Positions 5,817 through 27,161 of a DNA stretch of 64,000 nucleotides are shown here, in pieces. Source of the DNA: a virus; IMG/VR virus record IMGVR_UViG_3300027503_000009. One strand, written 5' to 3'. The translations under genes were made by a program, and so were the position numbers. A model generated the notes under the pieces. The model was not told the origin of the DNA. It saw only the letters and a program-made list of their open reading frames with translations, and ran no database searches. Position 1 is the first letter of the stretch; each line of letters opens with the position of its first letter.

Positions 5817-5827
5817 ATAGTTTAAAC

Positions 5828-5901
5828 ACCCGCTTAGTGTAACGGCAGCACAAATGACTTTGACTCATTTAGTCTAGGTTCGAATCCTGGAGCGGGTGCC
5901 A
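5828..5901 (+). tRNA. tRNA-Gln(TTG)
   Basis: AATGA-CT-TTG-AC-TCATT, CCA. Confidence 0.92.
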
Positions 5902-5939
5902 AACTTGACAACAATTAAAAATTTTGGTATAATTAAATT

Positions 5940-6863
5940 ATGAAAGCATATATTACAATTGGTCTTCCTGCTTCTGGGAAAACGACCTGGGCCAAAGAGT
6001 TTTGTAAAACGAATAACGTTGTTCGTGTGAACAACGACGACATTCGTGAACTTATTTATGAGAAGGAAGGCCATCGGAATTGGACTGGCGAAGTCGAGAA
6101 ACAGGTCCGGTGGATTCGCAAAGCAAAGATTGTAGAAGCAGCAGGACACAATATGAGTGTTGTGGTGGATAACACTCACCTGAATCCAAAGACGCTTCAG
6201 CAGATCAAAGACTTTTGTGTTGATGTTGGATTCGAAGTTGAGTTGGTAGATTTCCGTCATGTGCCTCTTGAAGAGTGCATCCGCCGTGATTCTTTGCGTG
6301 AAGCGAAAGTTGGAGAAAAGGTAATTCGTGATATGTATGATAAATTTATGAAAACTCCGATTGATCGTGATCTCCCAAAATGGGAACCTAATCGACTATA
6401 TAATTGTATTATTGTTGATATTGATGGTACTCTTGCTCAAATGAAAGATCGTGGACCTTATGATGAACATAAAGTATATCAAGACGATGTTCGAAATCAT
6501 GTCTTAATGACTGTTAAGGCATTGAAGATGATCAATCCGAATTTTAAAATATTTATTTTTACTGGACGTTCTGAAAAGTGTTCAACTGAAACTGTTAAAT
6601 GGCTAGAAGATAAATGTGGCTTTTATGTTCTGAATCATCATGATGAATATGATGATTTTCGATTAAATGTTGAACTTCATATGAGACAAGAAAATGATCG
6701 TCGTAGAGATTCAGAAGTAAAAATGGATATGTACAATCAATTCATCAAGTATAAATATAATGTATTTGCTGTTTTTGATGATCGCCCACAAGTCATCAGA
6801 GAATGTTGGAAAGTATTAAATGTTCCAGTTTTTAATTGTGGATTAATAGATTTGGAGTTCTAA
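5940..6863 (+). CDS. pseT: polynucleotide 5'-kinase/3'-phosphatase
   Basis: GLPASGKT P-loop, DIDGT HAD motif, FDDRPQV. Confidence 0.92.
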   Translation: MKAYITIGLPASGKTTWAKEFCKTNNVVRVNNDDIRELIYEKEGHRNWTGEVEKQVRWIRKAKIVEAAGHNMSVVVDNTHLNPKTLQQIKDFCVDVGFEVELVDFRHVPLEECIRRDSLREAKVGEKVIRDMYDKFMKTPIDRDLPKWEPNRLYNCIIVDIDGTLAQMKDRGPYDEHKVYQDDVRNHVLMTVKALKMINPNFKIFIFTGRSEKCSTETVKWLEDKCGFYVLNHHDEYDDFRLNVELHMRQENDRRRDSEVKMDMYNQFIKYKYNVFAVFDDRPQVIRECWKVLNVPVFNCGLIDLEF

Positions 6864-7032
6864 TGTCACCACCTGTATTTTTTACTGCACTAGCTGTTAT
6901 TCTTTGTTATCTTTGTTATAAATTAGGAGTAGCTTTAGAGAGAGAAAAATGGATTTACCATCTACACTTTCTTGAACGTGGTGTTGCGAAATGTTACAGA
7001 AATGGTAAAGTAGATCTTCTTTAAGAGGAAAT

Positions 7033-7215
7033 ATGTACGAGAATTTAATTGGAAAAAATGTTGATGAAGTTAGAGATTTTTTAAAAGAAAATCAAATTCC
7101 TTCAAGAGTTGTAAATATTGATGGTGTCCCATTCATGTTGACAAATGATTATAATCCAGCCAGATTAAATCTTTCTGTTGAAAATGGTTTGGTTACTGAA
7201 GTAATTATAGGTTAA
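7033..7215 (+). CDS. small serine-protease-inhibitor-like protein (potato inhibitor I / I78 fold)
   Basis: Pattern LIGK...LTNDYNPARLNLSVENGLV...G. Confidence 0.65.
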   Translation: MYENLIGKNVDEVRDFLKENQIPSRVVNIDGVPFMLTNDYNPARLNLSVENGLVTEVIIG

Positions 7216-7216
7216 T

Positions 7217-7750
7217 ATGAAACGTTGGGTGATTTCTGATACACATTTTGGTCATGAGAATATTATTAAATATTGTAATAGACCATTTCAAACAAAAGAA
7301 CAAATGGATGAAGTTCTAATAAATAATTGGAACAAATGTGTATCAGAAAATGATATTGTTTATTTTCTTGGTGATTTTTGTTTTGGTCGTCCAGGACATC
7401 AAGTTTCAAAAAATTATCGTGAGAAATTAAATGGAAAAATACATTTGATTCGTGGTAATCATGATAAATATATTGACGAATCTTTGTTTGAAACATCACA
7501 AAATGATCTAGTATTAAATATCATGGATAAACAAATTTATCTTTGTCACTATCCAGAAGAAGATAATAGATTTAATAAGCCATACTATGATTTTTATCTG
7601 TATGGTCATATTCATGATAAAATAAAATTTCACCCAAGAAAATTCAATATGTGTGTTGAAAATTGTGATTATACACCAATTGATTTAGATTTTTTTGTTG
7701 ATTTTATTTCTAGACATTATGGAGACAATTATGAACCAAAAGAAAGTTAA
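7217..7750 (+). CDS. calcineurin-like metallophosphoesterase
   Basis: SDTHFGH, LGD, GNHD and GHIH motifs. Confidence 0.92.
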   Translation: MKRWVISDTHFGHENIIKYCNRPFQTKEQMDEVLINNWNKCVSENDIVYFLGDFCFGRPGHQVSKNYREKLNGKIHLIRGNHDKYIDESLFETSQNDLVLNIMDKQIYLCHYPEEDNRFNKPYYDFYLYGHIHDKIKFHPRKFNMCVENCDYTPIDLDFFVDFISRHYGDNYEPKES

Positions 7751-7992
7751 GGTTATTCCTGAACAAATTATTCCTTCACGAATGATTGGTTCATGTTATC
7801 AATGTGATTTTTATTTCACAGATTCTTTAGGCGATTCTAGATTCTGTAAAAAAGTTAATAAAGAAGTAGATTTGCGAATTGGTGAAAAATTTCCAAAATG
7901 GTGTCCACTAGAAGAAAAAGAAATTGATGAAAATATTTTCCTCTAGCACTTGACAAACCATAAAATTTTTGATATTATAAATATATAAACAT

Positions 7993-8071
7993 AGGGAAAT
8001 AGAGGAGCCTGGTTTATCTCGTCTGTTTTGGGAACAGAAGCACGTCGGTTCGAATCCGACTTTCCCTACCA
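7993..8071 (+). tRNA. tRNA-Pro(TGG)
   Basis: TCTGT-TT-TGG-GA-ACAGA, CCA. Confidence 0.88.
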
Positions 8072-8077
8072 AATTTT

Positions 8078-8152
8078 TCTGGAATAGCTCAATGGTAGAG
8101 CGTCTGGCTGTTAACCAGAATGTTGTAGGTTCGAGTCCTACTTCCAGAGCCA
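8078..8152 (+). tRNA. tRNA-Asn(GTT)
   Basis: CT-GTT-AA loop, GCCA end. Confidence 0.93.
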
Positions 8153-8432
8153 AGATGCGGCTCATGGCAATAGTCACCCACGGTAAGGAGAGATTAGAAA
8201 CTCGCAGACTATAAAAATCCGCAAACAAGATTAGTGAGGATAAATTATGAAATATTTTTTATTTGCGTGTAGTTTTTTATTTTCTGGATATTTTGTTAAT
8301 GCAAATGTTCCAAAGTTTTGTACTCCGCATGGATGTTGTGTAGATAAATGTCCGTGTGTGAAGAAATGTTTATGTGATTGTGCATGTAAACGAAAGAAGC
8401 GATCATGATCGCTATTAAGGTATAATGAATAT

Positions 8433-8717
8433 ATGAAATTCTTTAGCTTTCTACAAAATAATTCTTTCGGTATTGATAAGCCTCCACCAAAAGTTGTTAT
8501 TGTTGAGGCGGAAAATGCCGAAGATGCGAACAAGCGTATTTTAGAAGTAGATGGCGTTTATTTCGGTGGTAATAATCGCTGGTCCCGTCAGTTGTCTTAT
8601 GAAGTTGGTGATGAAGTCCCGTCTCTTTGGGGTGATCCTCTTGAATTTGCTGAAGATGGAAACGTTTTAGTGGTTTATGCAAACGGTGAAAAAAAGTTTG
8701 GTGTTTTTCACTGGTAG
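8433..8717 (+). CDS. hypothetical protein, paralog of 45169..45492
   Basis: Shares QNNS, VEAENAEDAN, EVDGVYF and VLVVYANGEKK...FHW. Confidence 0.8.
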   Translation: MKFFSFLQNNSFGIDKPPPKVVIVEAENAEDANKRILEVDGVYFGGNNRWSRQLSYEVGDEVPSLWGDPLEFAEDGNVLVVYANGEKKFGVFHW

Positions 8718-8763
8718 TATTGACTTCTCAATTCCTTTCGAGGTATAATGGTTGTATGGTAAA

Positions 8764-8839
8764 GCTATGATAGCTCAATTGGTAGAGCAACGGTTTTGTA
8801 AACCGTAGGTTGTCAGTTCAAGTCTGACTCGTAGCTCCA
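8764..8839 (+). tRNA. tRNA-Thr(TGT)
   Basis: ACGGT-TT-TGT-AA-ACCGT, CCA. Confidence 0.93.
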
Positions 8840-9556: not shown

Positions 9557-9807
9557 TAAATGAAAAGAAAAGAATTGAAGATGGCGAAGAAGTCACTTAT
9601 GTAGTGATTAACGAATCTTACGATGACGATTATGGTTCGTTGATTATGGATTATGTTCCATATAGAATTGATTCTAAAGGCAACAAAAAGAGACTTTCTC
9701 CAGAGAATTACGCATTAGGTCCATTTGAAGCGCAACAATATATTACATTCAAGAAGAACGTTCGTTGTGAACATTGTAATTCTGTAATTAAGACGGAGTA
9801 TTTATGA
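9553..9807 (+). CDS. hypothetical protein
   Basis: ORF overlapping both neighbours at ATGA. Confidence 0.65.
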   Translation: MINEKKRIEDGEEVTYVVINESYDDDYGSLIMDYVPYRIDSKGNKKRLSPENYALGPFEAQQYITFKKNVRCEHCNSVIKTEYL

Positions 9808-10190
9808 AACTTTGGTTAGATGATGTTAGAAAGTGTCCTTTTATTGGAAACTGGAAAACTGCTAAAAATTTTGATGAAGCAGTAAACATTATGCAAGAAA
9901 ATGAAATTGAAGAAGCATGGTTAGATCATGATCTTGCATATGAGCATTATGGACATGTAAAGCCAGAAGATTATGTAGAAAAAACTGGTTATGATTTTGT
10001 TCTTTGGATGAAAGAGAATAATCGTTGGCCTACAAAATTGTGTATAGTTCATTCCTTAAATCCTGTTGGTTCTGAACGAATGTGTGAAGTTATCGCAGAA
10101 CATTATGGAACTCAAAATCCAAAACGTCATTATATTTCTTATTTAAATATTGACAAATATTTTCAGGGTTTTAAATATGCCAATCTATGA
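9804..10190 (+). CDS. cyclic-phosphate-processing receiver-like domain protein
   Basis: LWLDDVR, LDHDL, TGYD and HSLNPVG motifs. Confidence 0.75.
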   Translation: MKLWLDDVRKCPFIGNWKTAKNFDEAVNIMQENEIEEAWLDHDLAYEHYGHVKPEDYVEKTGYDFVLWMKENNRWPTKLCIVHSLNPVGSERMCEVIAEHYGTQNPKRHYISYLNIDKYFQGFKYANL

Positions 10191-10368
10191 CTTTAAATGC
10201 CAAGTATGCAATAAAGAGTTTGAGATGATTTTAAAAATGGATGAAGATATTACTCGTTATCCAGGATGCGAAAATGTTGAGTGTTTTATTAAAAAAATTC
10301 CTAGTGCCTGTGGTATTAAATTTAATGGTTCTGGATTTTATATAAATGATTATAAGGAGAAAAAATGA
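10177..10368 (+). CDS. FmdB-family zinc-ribbon protein
   Basis: MPIYDFKCQVC...FNGSGFYINDY. Confidence 0.85.
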   Translation: MPIYDFKCQVCNKEFEMILKMDEDITRYPGCENVECFIKKIPSACGIKFNGSGFYINDYKEKK

Positions 10369-11384
10369 AGTTTATTTTAGTAAGTATTTTTAGTATTGGG
10401 TTGATGTTCTCTCAACCTACTGTGTCGCCTTCTAGTGTGAATGTGACTTTTGATTTAGCAACAGATACAATTGTTGCTGTACCTGACGTAACAATTTCTT
10501 CAAATGCAGCACCTTTTGCATTTACTACAGTTGTTCCATCCAATCAGCAAGCTGTTCTTGTTTGGCCTGTTCAGGGTTTTCTGGCACCTGGAACAAATCA
10601 AGTTGTAAAGATGTCTGTAGTAAATAATGGTCTTTCTGTTGGATCTTATAATATTCCAGTTAACTTTGTTCAGAATTCACCATCTGTATCTGTTTCTGTG
10701 GGTATTAATCTTACAGTAATTGATTCACGAACCTTTACTACTTCAACCGATCCAATTATTCCCCATATTGCATCCGGTGGTGGTTGGACAACAACTGTCA
10801 GACTAACAAACACATCCAATTGGATCAGTCTAGTTACTCTGAAGTTTTATGAACCTTCGGGAACAAATTCACCATTCTTTATTAATGGAAATTATGTTTC
10901 TGAACATTCTGTCGTTGTTCCTGGAAATGGTTCCGTTGATGTAGTTCTATCAGATCCACTTTCACTAAAGACTGGTTCTTTGGATATTAAGACTGTATAT
11001 GGTTCTGGTGTAGTTGCTCAGGCAACATATTCAAATGCTTCTTTTGAAGCAACGATTTCAAGTTCTATTGCTAATCGAGATGGATTCTCATTACCATACG
11101 ATAATTATGGTTCTTTTTCAACTGGATTAGCTCTAGTTAATTATCTAAATTATACACAAGAAGTAGCATTTACTTTTTATGATAATCTAGGAAATCAAAT
11201 CCATACAGATAAAATTACTCTTCCTGCAAGGGGTCAAACTGCCTTAACACTAGACGTAGCTTTCCCACAAACAAAAGGAAAAGTTGGTTCTGTTCGTGTT
11301 AAGACTACACGTTCTGCACTAACTGGATTTGGTTTGAAGTTTAATCGTGATAAGGGTTATTTCACAACAATTCCTATCTTCTAA
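10365..11384 (+). CDS. secreted beta-sandwich protein, acidobacterial-like
   Basis: Signal peptide, Ig/BACON-like N domain, PHIASGGGWTTTVRLTN and TGLALVN segments. Confidence 0.7.
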   Translation: MKFILVSIFSIGLMFSQPTVSPSSVNVTFDLATDTIVAVPDVTISSNAAPFAFTTVVPSNQQAVLVWPVQGFLAPGTNQVVKMSVVNNGLSVGSYNIPVNFVQNSPSVSVSVGINLTVIDSRTFTTSTDPIIPHIASGGGWTTTVRLTNTSNWISLVTLKFYEPSGTNSPFFINGNYVSEHSVVVPGNGSVDVVLSDPLSLKTGSLDIKTVYGSGVVAQATYSNASFEATISSSIANRDGFSLPYDNYGSFSTGLALVNYLNYTQEVAFTFYDNLGNQIHTDKITLPARGQTALTLDVAFPQTKGKVGSVRVKTTRSALTGFGLKFNRDKGYFTTIPIF

Positions 11385-12858: not shown

Positions 12859-13054
12859 TACAATAGAAGAAAAAAGACAAGATGTAATAGCTAGAAATTG
12901 GCTAAATAATTGGAAATTAAACGATAAAGACCAAAAAATCATAGATGAATATCTACAAATGTTAAAAAATAAAAAAACTCAGGATTTCTCCTGAGTTTTT
13001 TGTTTATATAAATATTTTTACATATTGAAAAATTTTACCTTATAAGGAGAAAAA

Positions 13055-14306: not shown

Positions 14307-14375
14307 TGGTATTATAAATAATAATGAGATGCCTAAAAGGATCTCATTAAATCACTCGCTTAAATGGAGAAAAAC

Positions 14376-14801
14376 ATGACACTAAGACGTATTAATTTAG
14401 ATACATTTCCTTTCCCTTCTTATGATAATTTAACCAGTTTTTGGGCAGAACAGGCCAAACAAACTGGAACTTATCCTCCTTACAATCTCACAAAAAATGA
14501 AGATTCAACCAAATTCAATATTACTCTAGCAGTTGCTGGATTTGGTCCTGAAGATTTGGATGTTTCAATTGAAGAAAATCAATTAATCATTCAGGGTAAG
14601 GTGAAGCCTAAGAATTTACCAGAAGGTATTTCTTATGTACATAAGGGAATTGCTGAACGAGTCTTTACTAAGACATTCACTTTAGGTGAACATGTTGAAG
14701 TAAAAGATGTAACTTATCAAGATGGACTACTAGATGTTAGTCTAGAACTAGTTGTTCCTGAACATAAGAAACCAAAGAAGTTCACAATTTCAACTAAATA
14801 A
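14376..14801 (+). CDS. small heat-shock protein Hsp20
   Basis: YPPYN, LAVAGF, HKGIAER and DGLL motifs. Confidence 0.93.
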   Translation: MTLRRINLDTFPFPSYDNLTSFWAEQAKQTGTYPPYNLTKNEDSTKFNITLAVAGFGPEDLDVSIEENQLIIQGKVKPKNLPEGISYVHKGIAERVFTKTFTLGEHVEVKDVTYQDGLLDVSLELVVPEHKKPKKFTISTK

Positions 14802-15188
14802 GGAGGGGGGGAGAATCTCCCCCCAAAATAAAGTGAAAACATATATTGAATGTGAATGCACATCATTACAACATGTTGTTAGAATGGATCTTTACTTAGA
14901 TCCATATGATACAACCGAAACACCAGAACTGTTTTTAACAATGCATTTATCTCCACTTCCTTTTTATAAGAGGTTAGTTAATGGAATAAAATACATATTT
15001 GGTTATCGTTCTATATTTGGTGATTTTGATGAAACTATTGTCAGTCCTGAATCTGTCACACAAATAAAAAACTTGTGTGAAAAATATGAAGAACTTTATA
15101 AGAAAATTAAATAAAAAATCGGGAACCAATGGTTCCCGATAAGTGTTTTAGGGGTAAAAAAATTAATTAAATTGTAACAAAGGAATCT

Positions 15189-18100
15189 ATGAAATATTTA
15201 TTAAGTTTATTTTTATTAACGACTAGCCTATTCAGTCAAGAAGCTTCTATTAGAGGAAAGATTTTTGATAAGAATGAAGAAGTAATTATTGGTGCAACTG
15301 TTAAGATTCAGAACGAAAAAACTGGATCTGTAAGAGAAGTTGTAACAAATGAAGTTGGTGAATACATTATCACAAATCTACCTGCTTCATCTTATAATGT
15401 AAAAGCTTCTGCTCCTGGTTTTGCAAATACACAGAAAACAGGAATTAAACTATTAGTTAATGAATCTATTGGTATTAATTTCATCTTAGTACCTCAAATT
15501 ATTAAGACTGAAATTATTGTTGAAGGTGGCGAAGTTACATCTATTGATACATCCTCAGCGAAGATTGGTGTTAATGTTTCTGAAAGAGAAGTTTCAAATC
15601 TGCCACTAAATGGTAGACAAATTTCGCAGTTATATCTATTAGCTCCAGGCGCTTCAACTGCTGGTGGTGGTACATTTGATAATATTAAGTTTAGCGGTAG
15701 ATCTAATCAGCAAAATGCTATTAGATATGATGGTATTGAAGGATCTTCTATTATTGATGCTTCTCCAGGTAATCTAAATGGACAGATTTCTTCATTTTTT
15801 AGATTACAATCTTCAATGGAAAATGTTCAAGAATTTCGTGTTGAATCTAATAATTATCCAGCAGAATATGGTACAGGAACTGGTGGTCAAATCACAATTG
15901 TAACTAAGTCTGGTGGTAATAAGATTCATGGTGGTGTTTTTGAATATCTTAGAAATAATGTATTAGATTCTAGAAATTTCTTTGATGCTACTAAGAATCC
16001 TTTACGTCTAAATCAATTTGGTGGCTCTATTGGCGGTCCAGTAAAGCAAGATAAGACTTTTTGGTTTGCTTCATATGAAGGTCTAAGGCAGAGACAATCA
16101 GTTCCATTTAGAGAAGCTGTTCCATCAGAATCAGCAAAAGCAAGAGCAGTTCCACAAGTTAGAAATCTTCTAGCACTTTATCCAGTTGGAAATATTCCAA
16201 CAACAGATCCAAATGCTTCTATTGTTGCTATTGATAGAAAACAGACTGTAGATGAAAATTCGTTTGGTCTAAGATTAGATTCAAAAATTTCAGATAATCT
16301 TTCTGGATATTTCCGTTACTTCAGAGATAATGGTAAGTCAATTCAACCACTAGGTGTTACTGGAAATTCTATTGATGTTACTGCGGTCCCACAAAATGCT
16401 GTAGCAAATGTTCAATGGATTATCTCGCCACAGAAAATTAATGAAACCAAGATTGGATTAAATGCTTATAAAACAAGAGCATGGGGAACTGCACCAATTG
16501 TAAATAACTTTAATCCAGCAGATATTTCAATTAATCTAACTGGTGGCGTTGCTTTATCTGGTATTACAACACAAGGTTCAAGCACAGGATTTGCTACTGC
16601 TGGTGGTCTAGTAAGATCAAATTCTGCTACAAATGGACGTGGACAACCTTATACTAATACTTCAATTACTTTGATTGATAATTTTTCATGGATTAATTCT
16701 TCTCATAATTTTAAGTTTGGTGGAGAATTAAGATTTATCCGTTTATTTACAGATCGTCTTGGTGGTACAACTTATAGCTTCTCAAACGTAGAAGATCTAA
16801 TTAATAATCGTCCATTACAAATTCAATTTTTGGGAGATCTTTCTGCACCTTCTCCGTTTAATAATGGAGCAACTGGAGAAAGACAAATTACTCAGAATTA
16901 TCTAATTGGTTATGCACAAGATGAATGGAAAGTATTTTCTAACTTTACTGTTAATTATGGAATTAGATATGAATTCTATTCAGTTTTCAAAGAAAAGAGA
17001 AATCTATTAGTTAATTGGTCACCAGAAACAGGAAACATTTTACCAAATAATCTTCCTGTCTATCGTTCAAATAAAGATAATTTTTCACCAAGATTATCTG
17101 GAACTTGGAGTCCAAAATCTCTAAATGGTAAGACTGTATTTCGTGTAGGAACTGGTGTTTATTTTGGACCTGGACAACCAGAAGATCTAATTCAACCATT
17201 TGAATCTGATCGTGTTAGTAAGACTATAACTAATACAACTTATCCAATTAATCCTACTTCAATTATTGCTTCTTACAATATCAATGATCCAAATCTTCGA
17301 TTTCAACCAAGAGCTTATTCTTCTGGTTATAATATTCCGGAAACTGTTTACTCATATACAGCATCAGTTCAACAACAAATTAAAGATAATGTTTTAACTG
17401 TTGCATATGTTGGTTCTCTTGGTAGAAATCTGTTTATTAGAACTCTTGGAAATCTAATCACAGATGTAACTCCTACTGGAACTGTAAAGAGACAATGGGG
17501 TGATAGATTTGCTGAAGTTGACGTAAAGACATCAGGTGGTAATGATCATTATAATGCTTTACAGGCAACTCTAAACAGAAAAACAAAGAGTGGTCTAACT
17601 TATGGTGCATCATACACATGGGGAAGATCAATCGGTTCATCTGGTGGCTCAAATGAAACTGTAACTGTTGCAAATCCTTATAATTGGAGAACTGATTATG
17701 GTAATAATGCGGCGGATATTCGTCATAATTTAAATGTTGTTGGATTGTATGAATGGAAAACATGGCAGATCGGTTCTGTTATCAATACCAGATCAGGTCT
17801 TCCTCTTGATCCATTAATCGTCAGAAACGATATTATCTTCTTTGACAAATCATCTGGAATGTACTATAATAGTTCTGTAGGGTCTAATTCTGTAGCTGTT
17901 ATTAATGTTCCTGGTGGTGGTCAAACAAGACAAATCCGCAGACCTGATTATGTATTAGGAGTTTCGCCATATATCAAGAATTCTGATAAAACAATTTTCT
18001 TGAATCCTGCTGCTTTCTCAGTACCAATGCCTGGAACTTTTGGAAATGCTTCTAGATACTCATTAAGAGGTCCAATGCTTTTCCAAGCAGATCTAACTCT

Positions 18101-18374
18101 TCAGAAAAAGATTTACACTAAAGACAAATATAATTTAATTTTCAGAACAGAATTATATAACATCTTTAATAATGTAAATTTTGCAAATCCTCCAGCACAA
18201 TTACCAAATGCAATTCCATCCAGAATTGGTCAGTCTAATACACTACAACCTGGACAGGTTTATTCAAATGCAACAAAAGGAGCAGCATTCGGAACAGTAC
18301 AATCAACACTAGATAAAACTGTTGGTCTGGGAACTTCTAGACAGTTACAGTTAAGTCTAAGAGTCAATTTTTAA
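15189..18374 (+). CDS. TonB-dependent outer-membrane receptor (carboxypeptidase-regulatory N domain, Oar-like barrel)
   Basis: Signal peptide, LPLNGR, VQEFRVESNNYPAEYG, TKSGGN, YAQDEWK, FSPRL, C-terminal LRVNF. Confidence 0.92.
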   Translation: MKYLLSLFLLTTSLFSQEASIRGKIFDKNEEVIIGATVKIQNEKTGSVREVVTNEVGEYIITNLPASSYNVKASAPGFANTQKTGIKLLVNESIGINFILVPQIIKTEIIVEGGEVTSIDTSSAKIGVNVSEREVSNLPLNGRQISQLYLLAPGASTAGGGTFDNIKFSGRSNQQNAIRYDGIEGSSIIDASPGNLNGQISSFFRLQSSMENVQEFRVESNNYPAEYGTGTGGQITIVTKSGGNKIHGGVFEYLRNNVLDSRNFFDATKNPLRLNQFGGSIGGPVKQDKTFWFASYEGLRQRQSVPFREAVPSESAKARAVPQVRNLLALYPVGNIPTTDPNASIVAIDRKQTVDENSFGLRLDSKISDNLSGYFRYFRDNGKSIQPLGVTGNSIDVTAVPQNAVANVQWIISPQKINETKIGLNAYKTRAWGTAPIVNNFNPADISINLTGGVALSGITTQGSSTGFATAGGLVRSNSATNGRGQPYTNTSITLIDNFSWINSSHNFKFGGELRFIRLFTDRLGGTTYSFSNVEDLINNRPLQIQFLGDLSAPSPFNNGATGERQITQNYLIGYAQDEWKVFSNFTVNYGIRYEFYSVFKEKRNLLVNWSPETGNILPNNLPVYRSNKDNFSPRLSGTWSPKSLNGKTVFRVGTGVYFGPGQPEDLIQPFESDRVSKTITNTTYPINPTSIIASYNINDPNLRFQPRAYSSGYNIPETVYSYTASVQQQIKDNVLTVAYVGSLGRNLFIRTLGNLITDVTPTGTVKRQWGDRFAEVDVKTSGGNDHYNALQATLNRKTKSGLTYGASYTWGRSIGSSGGSNETVTVANPYNWRTDYGNNAADIRHNLNVVGLYEWKTWQIGSVINTRSGLPLDPLIVRNDIIFFDKSSGMYYNSSVGSNSVAVINVPGGGQTRQIRRPDYVLGVSPYIKNSDKTIFLNPAAFSVPMPGTFGNASRYSLRGPMLFQADLTLQKKIYTKDKYNLIFRTELYNIFNNVNFANPPAQLPNAIPSRIGQSNTLQPGQVYSNATKGAAFGTVQSTLDKTVGLGTSRQLQLSLRVNF

Positions 18375-18375
18375 T

Positions 18376-18591
18376 ATGATGACAAATGAACAAAAGATAG
18401 AAATCTACGAAGAACTTCTGCATAGAATCCAACTCTATGCAGAAGTTACACTAGATTCAGAAAAACTAAATAATTTAATAAGAAATATTTGTAAATGGTC
18501 CTATGCACATAGAGTTGGAAATGGTTATTCACCAATTGAAGAGTTAGATGAAAGGATTGAAAATGCAACCAAAAAATTATTGGAAAGATAA
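18376..18591 (+). CDS. hypothetical protein
   Basis: ORF in operon context. Confidence 0.7.
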   Translation: MMTNEQKIEIYEELLHRIQLYAEVTLDSEKLNNLIRNICKWSYAHRVGNGYSPIEELDERIENATKKLLER

Positions 18592-19204
18592 ATTTGAAGA
18601 TATTATGTATAGTGTAAAATATAGATATCATAATATCTTGAATTCTATTAGATATAGAACAACTAGAAGATATTATATTGTAAATAGTGGTTTAAAACCT
18701 GGATATTATGACACAGGTGAACTCATTTTACATGTTAATTTCAAGCTTCTTGTTGATTTTGTTGAAATTGAAAAAGCATGGATGAATACATGGACTGATG
18801 ATAGTGCATATTCTAAGTTGTCTTGGTTTCAAAAGAAATTTTGCAGATTCCGTTCACCCCAAGATGGAATTGCATATCTAAATTGGGAAATTAATGAATC
18901 TCAATTAGAACATCAAACAAAATCAGCAAAAGAAATTTTAGAACTTTATACTTGGTGGAAAGTAACTAGACCAAATAGACCAGATCCATATATTGAAGCT
19001 GGTTATGATGAAGTTTTTAAAGATAAAAACTTATCTGAACATTTTATAAGAGAAGAAGGAAGTAATACTTATACTATGAAACCATTCACTAAGAAAGAAA
19101 GTGCAGTATTTGAAAAAGTAACAAAAATCGAAAATAAATATGAAAAAGAAGATGAAAAAATGTTAATTCGTCTGATGAAAATTCGCAAATCTCTTTGGAC
19201 ATAG
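18548..19204 (+). CDS. conserved T4-like hypothetical protein
   Basis: LLVDFVEIE, ELYTWWK and MLIRLMKIRKSLWT segments. Confidence 0.75.
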   Translation: MKGLKMQPKNYWKDKFEDIMYSVKYRYHNILNSIRYRTTRRYYIVNSGLKPGYYDTGELILHVNFKLLVDFVEIEKAWMNTWTDDSAYSKLSWFQKKFCRFRSPQDGIAYLNWEINESQLEHQTKSAKEILELYTWWKVTRPNRPDPYIEAGYDEVFKDKNLSEHFIREEGSNTYTMKPFTKKESAVFEKVTKIENKYEKEDEKMLIRLMKIRKSLWT

Positions 19205-19206
19205 AA

Positions 19207-19827
19207 ATGGATAAACAACTTTTACAACCAATTTTAGATGCGTTTGTAGCACATGGAATTACTAACCCTTATTTGCAGAAAGCGATAATTGCTAACATGC
19301 AAAAAGAATGTGGTTTAATCCCAAGAGAAGAAAATCTAAATTATTGTAAAACTGACAACTCTAGAATCAAATCTATATTTGGTTCTAGAGTTTCTAAATT
19401 AACTGATTCTGAATTATCTACAATTAAATGTAATCCAAGAGAATTTGCAGAATTAATTTATGGTTCTAATAATTCTATCGGTCGTTTGATGGGCAATATA
19501 AATCCCGGTGATGGTTGGATTTATCGTGGAAGAGGTTATATCCAATTAACAGGTAGAGCTAACTATAAGACATATGGTGATATGTGTGGATTCAATATTA
19601 TTCAAAATCCGGACTTATTGGTAAGTGATAAAACTATTTCTGCTATTATTTCTGTTAAATTTATTTTAGTAGGTTTACATGGGAATACAAAATTTACTAA
19701 TCAAGCAGATGCGGATAGAGCGGTTACACAAGTAATTGGTGGTAGGGGATTAAATTTAAATAGTGGATATGGTGCTGAACTTTTAGCAAAGGTTAATGAT
19801 TTTTCATCAAAAATATTTCTTTCTTAG
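19207..19827 (+). CDS. GH19-family lysozyme/endolysin
   Basis: EENLNY, GDGWIYRGRGYIQLTGRANY. Confidence 0.88.
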   Translation: MDKQLLQPILDAFVAHGITNPYLQKAIIANMQKECGLIPREENLNYCKTDNSRIKSIFGSRVSKLTDSELSTIKCNPREFAELIYGSNNSIGRLMGNINPGDGWIYRGRGYIQLTGRANYKTYGDMCGFNIIQNPDLLVSDKTISAIISVKFILVGLHGNTKFTNQADADRAVTQVIGGRGLNLNSGYGAELLAKVNDFSSKIFLS

Positions 19828-19862
19828 TTGACAACAACAAAAAACTGTGATATACTATAATT

Positions 19863-22358
19863 ATGAAATTTTATACAAATGTTGCCAGTATTGGTAATAC
19901 TGTTTATGTTCGTGAAGTTAATAACGGAGTACCCTCAAATTATAAGTTTGAATATGCTCCATCACTTTATATTCCTTCAAAAAATAAATCTAACTTCAAA
20001 TCTCTAGACAATAAGTATCTAGAAAAAGTAGATTTTATAAATATCAAAGATTATAATGAATTTATTGAGAAATACAAGGATGTTTCCAATTTCTCAATTT
20101 ATGGTGATATTAATCCTATTTTTTCATACATCTCAGAAAACTATCCAAATGATATTGAATTTGATATGAAACATATCAAGATTATGACTTTGGATATTGA
20201 GACAGAATCTGAACATGGTTTCCCAAAAGTAGAATACACTCAAGAACGTGTAAATTTAATTACCGTAAAAGTATTTAATTCAAAACATTATTTTACTTTT
20301 GGACTTGGTGAATTTACTCCAAAAAATAAATATCAAAATTACATTCAATGTGAAGATGAAAGTGAACTTTTAGATAAGTTTTTACTTTTCATGGAAAAGA
20401 TGCAACCAGATATTATTACTGGTTGGAATGTCAGATTTTTCGATATTCCTTATCTTGTAAGACGTATAAATATGATTCTTGGTGATGGAGCCAGTAAAAG
20501 ACTTTCATTTTGGAAGTACATTCGTGAAAAAACTGTTATCATGAATGGAAAAGAAAATGTAACTTATGATCTTTATGGTACGTCAATTATTGATTATTAT
20601 GAAATCTACAAGAAAAATGTACTTGAGCCAAGAGAATCATATAAACTAGATTTTATTGCTCAAGTAGAACTTGGTGATAATAAACTTCCCTTCGATGGTT
20701 CGTTCAAAGAATTCTATTCAAACCATTACCAAACATTCGTTGAATATAATATTCAAGACGTTGCTCTTGTTGATAGATTAGAAGCAAAACTAAAACTAAT
20801 CGAATTAACTTTAAGTGTTGCTTACTTTGGTCATGTTAATTACGTTGATGTCTTATCTCAGGTCAGAACTTGGGATACCACAATTTATAATTATCTAAAA
20901 AACAAAAACATTATTGTTTCACAGAAGAAAAATTCATCAAAGAGTGATCAATTTGTTGGAGCATATGTTAAAAATCCAAAAGTTGGTTTCCATAAATGGG
21001 TTGTTAGTTTTGACGTTAACTCACTCTACCCTTCTATTATTCGTTTCTTAAATATCGGTGTTGAGACAAAATCCCCAAATAAGAAATTTTTTAATATTGA
21101 ACAGGTATTAGAAAGTAATGACTTTTCTTTTGATAAAGATTATACTATTGGTGCAAATGGTGTAATGTATAGAAAAGATTTTATTAGTTTTTATTCTGAA
21201 CTTGTTGAAAAACTATTTAATGATAGAATTAAGTTTAGAAAATTAGCTAAGGAAATGGAGAAGAAAGCAAAAGAAAATCCCAACGATCCAGATATTGAAA
21301 ATATTAATAATCTTCAAAGTAAGTATGACTTAAAACAGAAAACAATGAAGATTCAATTAAATTCATTATACGGAGCTATGGGTAATGAATATTTTAGATT
21401 TTTTGATTTAGAAAATGCTCAAGCTGTTACAATGACTGGTCAGTTTATTATTCGTTATGTCGGTAATAAGCTAAATGATTTCTTAAACAAAAAAATTGGA
21501 ACAGAAAATTATGAATATGTGATTTATATTGATACTGATTCAAACTACATTACATTAGATCCTCTTGTATCCAAAATGTTTCCTAAAGAAACAGATAATA
21601 AAAAGATTGTAGATTATATTGATGATTTTTGTGTTAATGTAATTGAAACAGAAATTGAAAATATTTTTAAAGATATTTCTGATAATTTCTTAAACGGAAT
21701 GAATCCAGAAATCTTAAAAATGAAACGAGAAGTTATTGCTGATAAAGGTATTTGGCAAGCAAAAAAGAGATATATTTTAAACACCTATGATGTTGAAGGG
21801 TTAAGATATGAAACACCTAAACTAAAAGTCATGGGAATGGAGATTGTTAAATCTTCAACTCCAAAGTTTTGCAGAGAAGAAATGAAAAACTGCGTAAAAC
21901 TAATTATGACAAGTAATGAAGAAACATTACAGAAATATATCATTGATGTAAGAAATAGATTTAATTCTTGTTCAGTTGAAGAAATATCATTTCCAAGATC
22001 AGTTAATGGTCTTGAGAAGTATTCTGATAAATCAAATATTTTTACAAAAGGAACTCCAATTCATGTAAAGGGTGCGTTAATTTATAATAACTTATTAACA
22101 GAGAAAAAGTTATATAATACATATCCTTTAATTAATGAAGGTGAGAAAATTAAATTTATTCATTTGAAAAAACAAAATCCAACTTCAGATTCTGTTATTT
22201 CATTTAACACAAAACTTCCAAAAGAATTAGGTCTTCATAAGTATATTGATTATGAAAAACAATTTGAGAAGACATTTATTGAACCATTAAAGAGTATCTT
22301 AGATACAATTGGATGGGAATTAGAAAAAACAATCACATTAGAGGATTTATTCGGTTAA
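19863..22358 (+). CDS. 43: family B DNA polymerase (gp43)
   Basis: Exonuclease DIET; DVNSLYPS, KIQLNSLYG, YIDTDS. Confidence 0.97.
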   Translation: MKFYTNVASIGNTVYVREVNNGVPSNYKFEYAPSLYIPSKNKSNFKSLDNKYLEKVDFINIKDYNEFIEKYKDVSNFSIYGDINPIFSYISENYPNDIEFDMKHIKIMTLDIETESEHGFPKVEYTQERVNLITVKVFNSKHYFTFGLGEFTPKNKYQNYIQCEDESELLDKFLLFMEKMQPDIITGWNVRFFDIPYLVRRINMILGDGASKRLSFWKYIREKTVIMNGKENVTYDLYGTSIIDYYEIYKKNVLEPRESYKLDFIAQVELGDNKLPFDGSFKEFYSNHYQTFVEYNIQDVALVDRLEAKLKLIELTLSVAYFGHVNYVDVLSQVRTWDTTIYNYLKNKNIIVSQKKNSSKSDQFVGAYVKNPKVGFHKWVVSFDVNSLYPSIIRFLNIGVETKSPNKKFFNIEQVLESNDFSFDKDYTIGANGVMYRKDFISFYSELVEKLFNDRIKFRKLAKEMEKKAKENPNDPDIENINNLQSKYDLKQKTMKIQLNSLYGAMGNEYFRFFDLENAQAVTMTGQFIIRYVGNKLNDFLNKKIGTENYEYVIYIDTDSNYITLDPLVSKMFPKETDNKKIVDYIDDFCVNVIETEIENIFKDISDNFLNGMNPEILKMKREVIADKGIWQAKKRYILNTYDVEGLRYETPKLKVMGMEIVKSSTPKFCREEMKNCVKLIMTSNEETLQKYIIDVRNRFNSCSVEEISFPRSVNGLEKYSDKSNIFTKGTPIHVKGALIYNNLLTEKKLYNTYPLINEGEKIKFIHLKKQNPTSDSVISFNTKLPKELGLHKYIDYEKQFEKTFIEPLKSILDTIGWELEKTITLEDLFG

Positions 22359-22361
22359 CAT

Positions 22362-23450
22362 ATGGCAAAAAAAGATAATTATTTTACAGATTTAGTTAAA
22401 ACAACAGGAAATAGTTACGCTGCATTAGCATCAGAAGGAATTGAAGCTGGAGATATAAACGGCTTCATTCCAACTGGTTCATATATGCTAAATGCAATTC
22501 TTTCAGGTTCAATTTATGGTGGACTTCCAGATAATAAAATCACAGCAATTGCTGGTGAAGAAGCAACAGGTAAAACTTATCTTGTATTAGATATTTGTAA
22601 GTTTTTCTTAAATCAAAATCCAGAAGCTGGTGTTCTTTATTTTGAAACTGAATCTGCAATTACAAAACAAACACTAGAAGAAAGAGGTATTGATACTTCT
22701 AGAGTAGCAATTATTCCTGTAACTACAGTTCAAGAATTTAGAACACAAATGTTAAAAATTATTGAAAAGTATCTAACACAATCTAAGTCTGAACGTAAAC
22801 CTATTATGTTTGTTTTAGATTCATTAGGAATGTTATCTACAACCAAAGAAATGGAAGATTCTGTTGCTGGATCAGAAACAAAAGATATGACAAGAGCAGG
22901 AATTATTAAAGCTGCTTTCAGAACAATTACATTGAAACTTGGACGTGCTGGTATTCCTCTTGTAGTAACAAATCACACATATGATGAACAAGGTAAAATG
23001 TTTTCTCAAAAAGTTATGTCGGGTGGTTCTGGTTTGAAGTATGCAGCATCATCAATTCTTTTCCTTTCAAAAGCAAAAGATAAAGATGCTCAAGGTGTTG
23101 TAGGTAATATTATCACAGTAACTAATAAAAAAGGCAGATTAACAAAAGAAAATGCTCAAATTAAAATTAGTTTAAATTATGAAACCGGAATGAATCCATA
23201 TTATGGTTTATTAGAACTTGGTGAGAAATATGGTTTATTCAAAAAAGTTTCAAATAAGTATGAAGTTAATGGTGTACAAGCATTTGAAAAACATATTCTA
23301 AAAAATCCAGAAAAATTCTTTACAAAAGATATTTTAGATAAATTAGATGTATGTGCTAGAAATGAATTTTATTATGGTTTAAAGAAAAAGAATTTCAATG
23401 ATGTAGAAACCGGAGAAACAGAAGAGGATTATGAAGATGGAGATGAATAA
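22362..23450 (+). CDS. uvsX: RecA-like recombinase
   Basis: GEEATGKT, LDSLGML, TNHTY, SGGSG. Confidence 0.95.
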   Translation: MAKKDNYFTDLVKTTGNSYAALASEGIEAGDINGFIPTGSYMLNAILSGSIYGGLPDNKITAIAGEEATGKTYLVLDICKFFLNQNPEAGVLYFETESAITKQTLEERGIDTSRVAIIPVTTVQEFRTQMLKIIEKYLTQSKSERKPIMFVLDSLGMLSTTKEMEDSVAGSETKDMTRAGIIKAAFRTITLKLGRAGIPLVVTNHTYDEQGKMFSQKVMSGGSGLKYAASSILFLSKAKDKDAQGVVGNIITVTNKKGRLTKENAQIKISLNYETGMNPYYGLLELGEKYGLFKKVSNKYEVNGVQAFEKHILKNPEKFFTKDILDKLDVCARNEFYYGLKKKNFNDVETGETEEDYEDGDE

Positions 23451-23748
23451 TTTTAATGTCAGTATTGTAAGAATTAATGGCGAAGATAATTTTGCTATTA
23501 AAATTTTAGATGAAAAGTACTTGAATTTAGTCTACAAGTATGATAAACTAGAAGTAGTGGATGATGTACTTTCATTTGAAATTAATGTTGTAGATAATCC
23601 AAACAATATTTCTGAAGAAGTTATATCTAATAAAGAATTTTCAGATTTTGTTGGTGAGTACTTAGTTTATTTATTAAAATCTCAGATGGAGAATGATGCA
23701 TTAAATGACGTTAGAGAACATAATTCTGAAGAACTTAGTAAAGAATGA
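23431..23748 (+). CDS. gp40-like small protein
   Basis: Size and position between uvsX and gp41 match T4-like gene order. Confidence 0.55.
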   Translation: MKMEMNNFNVSIVRINGEDNFAIKILDEKYLNLVYKYDKLEVVDDVLSFEINVVDNPNNISEEVISNKEFSDFVGEYLVYLLKSQMENDALNDVREHNSEELSKE

Positions 23749-25102
23749 TGATTTCACAAGAAAGACTATTCCTTTCATTGAAGAGGAATATTTTAGTAAT
23801 TCACATGAGAGAATTTTTTTCTCTCATGTGAAGAACTATTTCAATCAATATAATAGTTTACCTACAAAAGAAGCATTAGCTATTCTTGTAAGTAACGATA
23901 AGAATATTAATGAGAGAGACTTTGAATCTATTAAAGAAACTTTAGAAGAAATTTCTAATGACACAGACGAAACCAACACACAATTTTTAATTGACAAGAC
24001 CGAACAGTTTTGTAAAGATAGAGCAATTTATAATGCAATCATTAAGTCTGTAAATATTATTGAAGGTAAAGATGATAAGTTAGATAAAGGTGCTTTACCA
24101 AAACTTCTCAGTGATGCTTTAGGTGTTTCTTTTGATAGAAATGTTGGTCATGATTATCTTGAAAATTCCGATGAAAGATTTGAATTTTATCATCGCAAAG
24201 AAAACAAAATTCCATTTGCATTAGACTATTTTAATAGAATTACTTCTGGTGGTATTAGTGAAAAAACTCTTACTGTTATTCTTGCTGGAACTGGCGTAGG
24301 TAAATCCTTGTTCATGTGTGATATGGCTTCATCAGTTTTTATGATGGGTAAGAATGTCCTTTATATCACACTTGAAATGGCAGAAGAAAGAATTGCTGAA
24401 AGAATTGATTCTAATCTTTTAAATGTTCCAATTGTTGAAATGAGAAAATTATCTGAAGATAATTTCAACAAAAAGTTAACAGCAGTTAGAAGTAAAACAA
24501 CTGGAAAATTTGTTGTAAAAGAATATCCAACCGCATCAGCTAATGCTAATCATTTTCGTGTTCTATTGAATGAATTAGCTATGAAAAAGAATTTTGTTCC
24601 AGATATTATCTTTATTGATTATCTAAATATTTGTTCAAGTTCAAGACTTAAAGTTGGTTCTAATGTAAATAGTTACACTTATGTTAAATCTATTGCAGAA
24701 GAGATTCGTGGTTTAGCTGTTGAATATTCAGTTCCAATTGTTACAGCAACACAAACCACTCGTTCAGGTTATTCAAATTCAGATGTTGGTTTAGAAGATA
24801 CATCAGAAAGTTTCGGTCTTCCAGCTACAGCAGATTTAATGTTTGCTCTTATTAGTACTGAGGAACTTGAAAAGTTAAATCAGATAATGGTGAAGCAATT
24901 GAAAAATCGTTATAATGATCCAGCCATGTATAGAAAGTTTGTTGTTGGTATTGATAGATCAAGAATGAAACTTTATGATGTCGATCAATCAGCACAAGAT
25001 TTAGTTGATTCTGGACATGATGATGAAGAAGATGATTTAGAAGAAACAATTGTTAAATCTCCATTCAAATTCAAAAATAAATTTTCTGATTTTAAATTCT
25101 AA
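23705..25102 (+). CDS. 41: replicative DNA helicase (gp41)
   Basis: AGTGVGKS, TLEMAEE, IDYL, SESFGLPATAD, KNRY. Confidence 0.96.
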   Translation: MTLENIILKNLVKNDDFTRKTIPFIEEEYFSNSHERIFFSHVKNYFNQYNSLPTKEALAILVSNDKNINERDFESIKETLEEISNDTDETNTQFLIDKTEQFCKDRAIYNAIIKSVNIIEGKDDKLDKGALPKLLSDALGVSFDRNVGHDYLENSDERFEFYHRKENKIPFALDYFNRITSGGISEKTLTVILAGTGVGKSLFMCDMASSVFMMGKNVLYITLEMAEERIAERIDSNLLNVPIVEMRKLSEDNFNKKLTAVRSKTTGKFVVKEYPTASANANHFRVLLNELAMKKNFVPDIIFIDYLNICSSSRLKVGSNVNSYTYVKSIAEEIRGLAVEYSVPIVTATQTTRSGYSNSDVGLEDTSESFGLPATADLMFALISTEELEKLNQIMVKQLKNRYNDPAMYRKFVVGIDRSRMKLYDVDQSAQDLVDSGHDDEEDDLEETIVKSPFKFKNKFSDFKF

Positions 25103-25136
25103 TAAATATTTAATAAATATTTCAAGGAGTTTGCGA

Positions 25137-25988
25137 ATGTTCAAAGAAGAAGCTGAAGGTAGAATGATATTAGCTCAACTGGAAAAAATTTCTAAGTTAT
25201 CAGCAGCATTAATGGATAAAATTTCTGATTCTGATGACTTAGAAGGTTGGGTTCAAAATAAAATTGATTTGGCAGAAGATTATATTCAAACAGTATATGA
25301 TTATATGACATATAATTCTGATTCAGTTTCTGAAGATGTTAATGAAGATTTGCGTAAATGGTTTAGTAAAACTGATCCAAAAGGTAATTGGGTTAGAATT
25401 GGAACCGATGGTGAAATTAAAGGAGATTGTGCTAGAGAAGAAGGTGAAGGTAAACCAAAATGTTTACCCAAACAAAAAGCAGACTCTATGAGTAAAGAAG
25501 ATAGAGCAAAAGCTGCTAGAAGAAAGCGCAGATTAGATCCACAAGCAGATAGACCAGGAACCGGAAATAAACCAATAAACGTAAAAACAGAAGAAGTTGA
25601 ATATTTAGAAGAAAAGAATGTTCCTTCCAATGCTAAATTATGGGCTAGAGCAAAAGCTTTAGCTAAACAAAAGTTTGATGTTTATCCATCAGCATATGCT
25701 AATGGATGGGCAGCTAAATGGTATAAATCTAAAGGTGGAACTTGGAAAACAAAATCTGAACAATTCATAAAAGGCACAAAAATGAAAACATTTAAAGAGT
25801 TTAGAGAAAGTTTGAATGAATGTGGTTGTGATAGTGTTATTGTAGAGAAGTCACCAAATGATCCAGAAATTGAAAAATGGATCAAGTCAAACAAAGCAAG
25901 ATTCAAGAAAGAATATGGTGAAAAGAAAGGAACAGAAGTTCTTTACGCTAAAGCATGGGATATGTATAATAAGAAACATAAGAAGTAA
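25137..25988 (+). CDS. late basic protein, probable internal head protein
   Basis: AATAAATA late-like boxes upstream; YPSAYAN module; LEE/LNE sites. Confidence 0.6.
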   Translation: MFKEEAEGRMILAQLEKISKLSAALMDKISDSDDLEGWVQNKIDLAEDYIQTVYDYMTYNSDSVSEDVNEDLRKWFSKTDPKGNWVRIGTDGEIKGDCAREEGEGKPKCLPKQKADSMSKEDRAKAARRKRRLDPQADRPGTGNKPINVKTEEVEYLEEKNVPSNAKLWARAKALAKQKFDVYPSAYANGWAAKWYKSKGGTWKTKSEQFIKGTKMKTFKEFRESLNECGCDSVIVEKSPNDPEIEKWIKSNKARFKKEYGEKKGTEVLYAKAWDMYNKKHKK

Positions 25989-25993
25989 CTAAC

Positions 25994-26338
25994 ATGCTAT
26001 CATTAAAAGAATTTTTTCACTTACTAGAAAACGAATTAGAAGACTTAACTGAAGAGGAAAAGAAAAAAAATCCTCCTCTAAATAAACCTATGAGGGGTGA
26101 TCGCAAAAAGTATAAAGTATACGTCAAAGATCCAAAAACTGGAAATATCAAAAAAGTTGAATTTGGTGATCCAAACATGTCAATTAAAAGAGATAATCCA
26201 GAAAGAAGAAAAGCTTTTAGATCAAGACATGGTTGTGATGATCCTTCAGTTCCAAAACCAAAAACCAAGGCAAAATATTGGGCTTGTAAGTTTTGGCAAA
26301 AAAGTAAAACAGTATCTTCACTTTTAGGTAAAAAATAA
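25994..26338 (+). CDS. conserved basic phage protein
   Basis: KKVEFGDPNM...RRKAFRSRHGC...AKYWAC. Confidence 0.75.
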   Translation: MLSLKEFFHLLENELEDLTEEEKKKNPPLNKPMRGDRKKYKVYVKDPKTGNIKKVEFGDPNMSIKRDNPERRKAFRSRHGCDDPSVPKPKTKAKYWACKFWQKSKTVSSLLGKK

Positions 26339-26679
26339 TGGCTGGAATTACAATAAAACAACGCAGAGGAACCACAACAGAGCATTCATCTTTTACTGGC
26401 GCATCAGGTGAAGTAACTGTTGATACAACTAAAAAAGTTTTAGTTGTTCATGATGGTTCAACTGCTGGTGGATTCCCACTAAATAGAACATATAGTGTTA
26501 CATTTACTGCTCAAACAACAGTAACTGTTAATCATAATTTAAATACATCAGATATTATAGTTGCTTGTTATAATGGTTCTAACGTACAAATTACACCATC
26601 TTCAGTAACTATAAATACTAGTAATAGTTGCACAGTAGTTTTTTCTGGTGCAACAACTGGAAAAATTGTAGTAAAATAA
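26338..26679 (+). CDS. tail fibre/adhesin-associated protein (Mtd-like N domain)
   Basis: RRGTT...GEVTVDT...VHDGSTAGG. Confidence 0.75.
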   Translation: MAGITIKQRRGTTTEHSSFTGASGEVTVDTTKKVLVVHDGSTAGGFPLNRTYSVTFTAQTTVTVNHNLNTSDIIVACYNGSNVQITPSSVTINTSNSCTVVFSGATTGKIVVK

Positions 26680-26737
26680 AACTTGAAACTATGTGTCTAA
26701 AAGAGCATAATTTATATTAAATGAAAAGGATAAAATA

Positions 26738-27136: not shown

Positions 27137-27161
27137 TTAAAATCCACCAGTAGGTAAATAC

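Follow-up and report, generated by a model that had tools for sequence, protein, structure and literature searches.

A TonB-dependent transporter gene in T4-like lake phages, its apparent source in Bryobacterales and its possible role in phosphorus uptake

Why would a lytic phage carry the gene of an outer-membrane transporter? The question is raised by a 64,000-nt stretch of viral DNA (IMG/VR record IMGVR_UViG_3300027503_000009, hereafter called the window), in which the open reading frame (ORF) at positions 15189–18374 of the plus strand encodes a complete TonB-dependent transporter of 1061 amino acids (P0001). Auxiliary nutrient-capture genes of phages are known chiefly from cyanophages (pstS, phoA), and a TonB-energised importer of the outer membrane is more demanding than either, as the host must export it, fold it and couple it to an energy source. 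Our literature search found no description of a TonB-dependent transporter in a lytic phage, and likewise none under phage- or virus-encoded TonB-dependent proteins. We find that the transporter is a phage auxiliary gene: it resides in phages, is of cellular origin and is maintained by selection. It also travels between phages as a mobile cassette, which is a new result. Its bacterial ancestor appears to belong to a phosphate-starvation regulon, and we propose, as a possible but tentative overall picture, that T4-like lake phages infect Bryobacterales and pass round a host phosphate-starvation importer that is wired to PhoB in one phage lineage and controlled by the phage in another.

The transporter gene in its phages

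The ORF starts with ATG and ends in ...RVNF, and an open frame of 1061 codons in DNA of 33% guanine plus cytosine (GC) lies far above chance expectation. The gene, its parts and the neighbouring features between 14364 and 22358 are all on the plus strand. A ribosome-binding site (AAAGGA, 15179–15184) lies 4 nt ahead of the ATG and is kept in the phage loci L004 and L012. Residues 1–18 (15189–15242) look like a Sec-type signal peptide, judging from the sequence (K2 followed by a hydrophobic run of ~14 residues) and from a helix modelled at residues 2–13; the aligned relatives have matching short leaders with AQ(T/S)D at the end. A CarboxypepD_reg beta-sandwich domain follows at residues 19–100 (15243–15488; PF13620 at residues 20–100, E 5e-18). 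The linker behind it (15489–15566) holds the strand motif KTEIIVEGG (residues ~106–114), in which T107, E108, G113 and G114 are invariant in nine aligned phage copies. This is a candidate TonB box by position and sequence: residue 5 of the BtuB chain in the BtuB:TonB complex (2gsk_A) aligns with model residue 97. The remainder comprises a plug (residues ~127–289, 15567–16055) and a beta-barrel with long extracellular loops and a C-terminal phenylalanine (16056–18371), matched by OMP_b-brl_4 (PF25183) at residues 319–1054 (E 4e-131) and by PF00593 (E 9e-4). Both PF13620 and PF25183 were found in all 24 relatives scanned, and this architecture, with CarboxypepD_reg ahead of the plug and a PF25183-type barrel, assigns the protein to the Oar-like subfamily.

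The fold was examined with an AlphaFold2 model. A model built on 24 homologues left the plug unmodelled and an alignment of 114 homologues was used instead, which gave a predicted local distance difference test score (pLDDT) of 80 and a predicted template-modelling score of 0.75; pLDDT was 82–89 in the CarboxypepD_reg domain and just 52–74 in the plug. Model residues from ~110–124 to 1061 align with full-length solved transporters from their residues ~5–30 onward, namely PirA (5fp2), Fiu (6bpn), FusA (4zgv), Cir (2hdi) and BtuB (1nqe), with Z of 30–34 over 513–678 residues. The Pfam Plug model was not significant in P0001 and matched weakly in 6 of the 24 relatives; we assigned the plug because these structural alignments span the plugs of the solved transporters and because the region is the most conserved of the protein. 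The barrel is predicted to be of the 22-strand TonB-dependent type. Its terminal F1061, the C-terminal aromatic residue of the beta-signal, is invariant across the 114 homologues. A search at the sequence level found no solved chain that matches P0001.

The genes of the window are T4-like by Pfam and PHROGs and include PolB, UvsX, a gp41-type helicase, a primase, ribonucleotide reductase, an RnlA-like ligase and 22 tRNAs; the closest cultured PolB proteins, at 46% identity, are those of T4-like cyanophages. An identical transporter protein occurs on 17 contigs, and the neighbourhoods shown for three of these contigs, each from a different sample, share one gene order with Hsp20 to the left and the endolysin and PolB to the right. 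The gene is also present on six contigs of viral collections. Its GC content is 33.5% against 33.3% for the window, and other phage copies likewise follow their loci (31.5% in a locus of 32.2%, 49.5% in 45.1%, 46.3% in 45.0%), with bacterial copies at 64%. In a database search, phage relatives at 82, 77, 71 and 69% identity ranked above the first bacterial protein (61%). The 77% copy, of a related phage (L012), occupies the same place in the order Hsp20, thioredoxin, transporter, a 217-aa gene, GH19, PolB. The 71% copies belong to a phage lineage of 45% GC, one of them on a 206-kb contig, with T4 RNA ligase, DHFR and thymidylate synthase genes upstream; the 69% copy has small neighbour genes identical in type to those of this lineage. 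The gene has probably resided in phages for long, since its GC content tracks each phage lineage and a single phage clade spans lineages of 32% and 45% GC. A misassembly or binning error that united bacterial with phage DNA, for which the unusual gene content is the one argument, can be practically dismissed given the identical protein on these contigs, the same phage neighbours on both sides in three samples, the viral-collection contigs, the match of GC and codons to each phage, and a phage clade of its own at 61–63% identity to the nearest bacterium. No PHROGs family matching the transporter was found, and 50,697 deposited phage records yielded a single weak match, on a 6-kb unannotated record. 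The nearest virus record is a 59-kb fragment that lacks the transporter gene and is uninformative.

Selection and exchange can be read from the phage copies. The ratio of nonsynonymous to synonymous change (dN/dS) is 0.11 between the window and L004 and 0.18 between the window and L012. A block at 15143–18375 is 95% identical at the DNA level (blastn) to a distant phage (L004, L005 and L006). According to the boundary alignments, this block starts directly past a terminator-like hairpin of the upstream gene (15118–15140), at whose position L004 and L012 have hairpins of differing sequence, and it ends with the transporter stop codon. Protein identity between the window and L004 in the flanks is 44.7% for PolB, 30% for UvsX, 52% for the helicase and 69% for Hsp20, and synonymous sites differ by 0.138 in the transporter compared with 0.51–0.72 in seven flanking genes. 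Because the transporter differs so much less at synonymous sites than its flanks, the cassette must have been transferred recently between distant phages, which implies that both phages meet in the same cells.

Relatives that lack the gene delimit the insertion. The left neighbour of the insertion region is the Hsp20 gene (14364–14801; Pfam), which is syntenic in L004, L012 and the three viral contigs L142–L144. The right neighbours are phage genes of 71 and 218 aa (18376–19204), followed by the GH19 endolysin and the T4-type DNA polymerase (19195–22358; Pfam, PHROGs). In L142, L143 and L144 (~6000–8300) the order is Hsp20, 71 aa, 218 aa, GH19, PolB, with ~320 nt between Hsp20 and the 71-aa gene and no transporter; these are empty sites. 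Lineages differ in where the insertion lies with respect to the 71-aa gene. A further viral contig of 10.6 kb (L138) is 99% identical to L004 (13214 on) from 28 nt past the transporter stop, and its upstream part (1–2205) is unrelated to L004 there and partly matches L004 22911–23183. This contig may be a structural variant without the cassette or a misassembly.

We then consider the cellular source. The best 80 bacterial loci, retrieved from a set with one genome per species, are all Acidobacteriota and nearly all Bryobacterales at 49–61% identity, with three records labelled otherwise or not named (Acidimicrobiia, Bordetella, 'bacterium'). In trees rooted on a paralogue, for which LG+G4 and the C20 mixture model agreed, the ten phage copies group together in a single clade (support 100, stem 0.37–0.43), which in turn is nested (support 100) with a small group of bacteria, among them the Bryobacteraceae metagenome-assembled genome BC2.138. 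The orthologue of this genome (P0012, contig JAWKHI010000035.1, loci L003/L014) is the nearest bacterial one, at 61–63% identity to the phage copies. Three Bryobacterales genomes have 209–243 matches each to the transporter family, of which just one is an orthologue at 53–63% and the next match is at 31%. Phage monophyly and the single orthologue per genome therefore indicate that phages acquired one specific transporter once, and the phylogeny identifies the donor as a single-copy orthologue of Bryobacterales. As side observations, Paludibaculum fermentans carries the orthologue (L051), and Bryobacterales-type orthologues are present in an Acidimicrobiia-labelled bin (G003, L019) and a Bordetella-labelled record (L073); these labels look wrong because G003 has 219 matches to the transporter family. 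We also considered an exported 339-aa protein of the window (10365–11384) as a second host-like gene. The 18 homologues it has are either without a name or called 'hypothetical protein', with no bacterial name among them, which leaves a Bryobacterales origin unsupported by this gene.

These results agree with a preliminary description made from the letters of the window, which had claimed an intact 1061-aa receptor with signal peptide, plug, barrel and terminal phenylalanine in a T4-like phage, probably long resident on account of its AT-rich codons and of acidobacterial type. Indeed, Pfam, the model and structural alignment recover each of these parts (the signal peptide by sequence and model), the GC content and the single phage clade across lineages support the long residence, and the phage copies are nested within Bryobacterales. 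That description had named best hits outside Acidobacteriota and a chimeric assembly as grounds for abandoning it, and we encountered neither: the context was that of a phage wherever the neighbourhood was shown. The dN/dS ratios it called for indicate purifying selection.

An upstream repeat element common to the orthologue and pstS

The upstream regions of the bacterial orthologues present an array of direct repeats with a period of 11 bp (...TTCAC...(G/T)TCATCG..CTGTAAC) that ends ~40–60 nt ahead of the start codon. The unit TGTAAC was found in 35 of the 71 non-redundant upstream regions, compared with 2.4 expected. From the orthologue upstreams alone we learned a matrix of this repeat, to which a threshold score of 15.8 was applied. 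Scores at or above this threshold were found ahead of 6 of 16 Bryobacterales pstS genes and 6 of 295 control ORFs, and two of these six controls are themselves pstS genes beside the transporter; with these two removed the contrast is 6/16 versus 4/293 (Fisher test, p = 1.3e-6). Several of the lower-scoring pstS upstreams also have TGTAAC-type repeats, and one (L123) has two at a spacing of 11 bp. In addition, 9 of the 80 loci have a pstS gene no more than 5 kb away from the orthologue. PHO boxes are direct repeats to which PhoB-type regulators bind head-to-tail, with cores such as CTGTCAT or GTTCACC (PMC4415409). Because the repeat element is common to the orthologue and pstS, and because the two genes are linked, we read the ancestor as a phosphate-starvation gene: on statistical grounds it appears to belong to a PhoB-type regulon, which is a new result. 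Separately, a PstS match (PF12849, E <= 1e-8) was detected in just 14 of 61 sampled Bryobacterales genomes; either many bins lack part of the genome or another phosphate-binding protein is in use in many members of the order.

The phage upstream regions were scored with the same host matrix against each phage's own composition. Four upstreams of the 45%-GC lineage scored 23.1, 22.3, 13.9 and ~12, within the top 1–2% of scanned windows of each locus, and elements scoring 12–23 were found in L001, L008, L097, L098, L100 and L118. In this lineage the TGTAAC unit lies ~55 nt ahead of the ATG, as in bacteria, or ~73 nt through an insertion in L008, and the element has been retained even though synonymous change between these phages has reached saturation. 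The gene of the window lineage is instead preceded by the terminator-like hairpin and a 48-nt AT-rich leader, and its upstream scores are at background (see below). Since the element is kept in one lineage and lost in the other, the first appears to be still wired to the host regulator and the window lineage to have been rewired; this contrast is a new result. None of the phage loci examined carries pstS.

Promoter-like words do occur elsewhere in the window. The T4 late-promoter word TATAAATA is found at 13007–13014 and 14313–14320, ~50 nt ahead of a 323-aa structural-like gene (13055) and of Hsp20 (14364), and a perfect TTGACA-17-TATAAT is found at 5905–5933, ahead of a PNKP-like gene at 5940.

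Nutrient import and its alternatives

What might the transporter do for the phage? We suggest that a stolen host transporter serves as a phage auxiliary uptake gene and imports a nutrient, probably phosphorus, a reading to which we give slightly better than even chances. Once the cell is infected, Sec would export the transporter, the beta-barrel assembly machinery (BAM) would fold it into the host outer membrane and the host TonB-ExbBD would energise it, and the import of one specific scarce substrate would thus be maintained or raised during phage replication. The substrate would most likely be a phosphorus source, because the ancestor appears to be part of the phosphate-starvation regulon. 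As a candidate for a phage-encoded TonB we considered the immediate neighbours (71, 120 and 218 aa), which have the look of cytoplasmic proteins and gave no match in Pfam or NCBIfam; this covers the neighbours only, and a window-wide scan for TonB, ExbB or ExbD was not made.

The conservation of the protein by region bears on import against roles in surface conflict. We mapped the regions of the model onto the 114 aligned homologues and computed identity among phage copies and between phages and their sister bacteria. The plug is the most conserved region (0.88 among phages, 0.83 to sister bacteria), followed by the extracellular loops (0.78 and 0.66) and the barrel strands (0.75 and 0.61). 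Lower values are found for the linker with the TonB box (0.73 and 0.40), the N-terminal domain (0.59 and 0.37) and the periplasmic turns (0.44 and 0.23). Eight of ten loop regions have a constant length in all phage copies, and most equal the bacterial lengths. The most altered parts, namely the signal peptide, N-terminal domain, TonB-box linker and periplasmic turns, face the periplasm or are loosely constrained. Because the plug and the surface loops are conserved, import is favoured over receptor roles, and the pattern fits retained substrate binding and gating.

It is possible, of course, that the gene acts at the cell surface rather than in import, through receptor replacement or masking, superinfection exclusion or as a decoy. 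TonB-dependent transporters are common phage receptors, FhuA has been solved in complex with pb5, the receptor-binding protein of T5, and with Llp, an exclusion lipoprotein (8b14, 8a60), and the gene moves among co-occurring phages. However, an arms-race or decoy role predicts loop diversification, of which the phage copies give no sign: their extracellular loops are no less conserved than the strands, mostly with the lengths of the host copies. A mere decoy would need neither the plug nor the TonB-box motif, yet both are strongly constrained, and an extra receptor would trap progeny on debris. We therefore consider these surface roles improbable. Even less probable is an outward function such as the secretion served by Oar in Myxococcus. 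Domain architecture is equal to Oar's by Pfam naming, and a retropepsin-like gene adjoins the two closest bacterial orthologues. However, this neighbour is found in just 6 loci (5 distinct), no candidate cargo gene is linked in the phage loci, and the likeness to Oar is one of architecture only.

Alternatively, the transporter could import a nutrient other than phosphorus, such as an iron complex, a peptide, a cofactor or a glycan, with the element belonging to another regulator that also controls some pstS genes. This is unlikely in our view but deserves more weight than the surface roles. The transport parts are conserved under this alternative too, a 45%-GC phage (L001) carries a ferritin-family gene (22405–22842) ~9 kb from its transporter, and in 10–13 loci the orthologue lies beside a two-component system of the OmpR type with a Cache-like sensor in its kinase. 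This system is the commonest neighbour of the orthologue, followed by pstS (8–9 loci). Against a different nutrient stand the element common with pstS and the physical linkage of pstS to the orthologue; moreover, a search around nine loci of the bacterial orthologue gave no riboswitch.

Several observations nevertheless weigh against the favoured reading, a stolen host transporter that imports a nutrient, probably phosphorus. The repeat element has been lost in the window lineage, with scores of -4.8 in the window, -4.6 in L004 and -0.5 in L012, and the window copy has no recognisable promoter among the sigma-70-like, T4-late (TATAAATA) and recurrent motifs that we looked for. The element is tied to PhoB solely through its association with pstS, and another regulator of the OmpR family could bind it. 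Among the best 80 bacterial loci the orthologue group has no conserved operon partner, and we know of no member of this group to which a substrate has been assigned. The TonB-box linker and the periplasmic turns are among the parts most changed from bacteria, which could mean altered coupling. Finally, the gap of 30 points in GC content between the window phage and Bryobacterales is unusually large.

Hosts, implications and comparison with known systems

The hosts of these phages are probably Bryobacterales or close kin, an assignment in which we have slightly more confidence than in the function. It is suggested by the donor clade, from the Bryobacterales-type control site retained in one lineage and from the need for compatible BAM and TonB. 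The large set of tRNAs is in keeping with a phage of low GC content that infects a host of high GC content, a situation known from cyanomyoviruses. When positions 20001–40000 of the window were compared with 301 Bryobacterales genomes, just two short matches at chance level were found, neither in a repeat array. Of the ideas in the preliminary description, an acidobacterial host thus stays a conjecture, which gains from the retained element and obtained no CRISPR or DNA link from these 20 kb and 301 genomes. Among the functions it listed, nutrient uptake is favoured and can be narrowed to a probable link to phosphate starvation, and the conserved loops agree poorly with superinfection exclusion or receptor remodelling.

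Other features of these phage genomes are recorded here as observations. The window has an array of 20 tRNA genes at 49–8839 (ARAGORN), several with unusually long variable or anticodon regions and one an odd Asn(att). An AAA/STAND-like ATPase, a PNKP-like kinase-phosphatase and a cREC_REC (cyclic-phosphate processing receiver) protein are encoded at 4761–6863 and 9804–10190. The region 41000–53000 has a GC content of 41–46%, compared with ~30% elsewhere, and contains many small ORFs, mainly on the minus strand, and two tRNAs (49280–49440). Repeated elements of 190–390 nt at 47250–47571, 48527–48721 and 50389–50974 are 77–86% identical to L004 18516–18891. In the 45%-GC lineage, a 125-aa ORF (L001 9306–9683) two genes upstream of the transporter consists of a CarboxypepD_reg domain only and resembles a detached N-terminal domain of the transporter.

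The gene offers a handle on the hosts of an abundant and uncultured group of lake phages, and it points to what would be the first T4-like phages of Acidobacteriota. It also singles out one of more than 200 Bryobacterales paralogues as worth theft, retention and trading by phages, and it suggests both a role in phosphate starvation for the bacterial orthologue and a candidate PHO box for the order. The kept and the lost host control site amount to a natural experiment in the rewiring of stolen genes by phages. If our reading is true, TonB-dependent uptake across the outer membrane would form a general class of auxiliary function in phages that has not been reported so far and that was acquired from several phyla of bacteria independently, and the hosts would come from a phylum for which hardly any lytic phages are known. 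Few viruses of Acidobacteriota have been cultured (PMC11924767).

How does the transporter compare with known systems? It shares the plug-in-barrel fold of the solved TonB-dependent transporters (PirA, Fiu, FusA, Cir and BtuB) over residues ~115–1061, but identity is at most 14%, P0001 has the additional N-terminal CarboxypepD_reg domain, and the substrates are unrelated where known. With the Bryobacterales orthologue of BC2.138 it shares its architecture, a plug that is 0.83 identical, and the lengths of eight of ten loop regions in all phage copies. The two differ in GC content (64% in the bacterium, 33.5% in the window copy) and in the diverged N-terminal domain, TonB-box linker and periplasmic turns, and the periodic repeat element ~40–60 nt ahead of the Bryobacterales start codons is absent from the window copy. 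Oar of Myxococcus xanthus likewise has a CarboxypepD_reg domain followed by a plug and barrel, and the two proteins are likened by this architecture. Oar is required for secretion of the protease PopC (PMC6434023), whereas no cargo is evident here.

Transporters of this type have been placed among the morons of temperate phages of ammonia oxidisers (preprint 10.64898/2026.05.02.722434). Both cases concern TonB-dependent transporters in phage genomes; those phages are temperate or prophages and the relevant passage of that preprint contains no analysis of selection, origin or exchange, whereas the phages studied here are lytic and T4-like. The closest precedent in logic is cyanophage pstS with its Pho boxes (PMC10976474; 10.1101/2021.07.20.453049). 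PstS is a periplasmic binding protein, whereas P0001 is predicted to be a 22-strand outer-membrane transporter that would require BAM and TonB-ExbBD, and the link to phosphate is here one of motif and linkage statistics only. As with cyanophage pstS and phoA, however, a T4-like lytic phage carries a nutrient-capture protein of the host envelope, and in one of the lineages described here the host control site appears to have been kept along with it.

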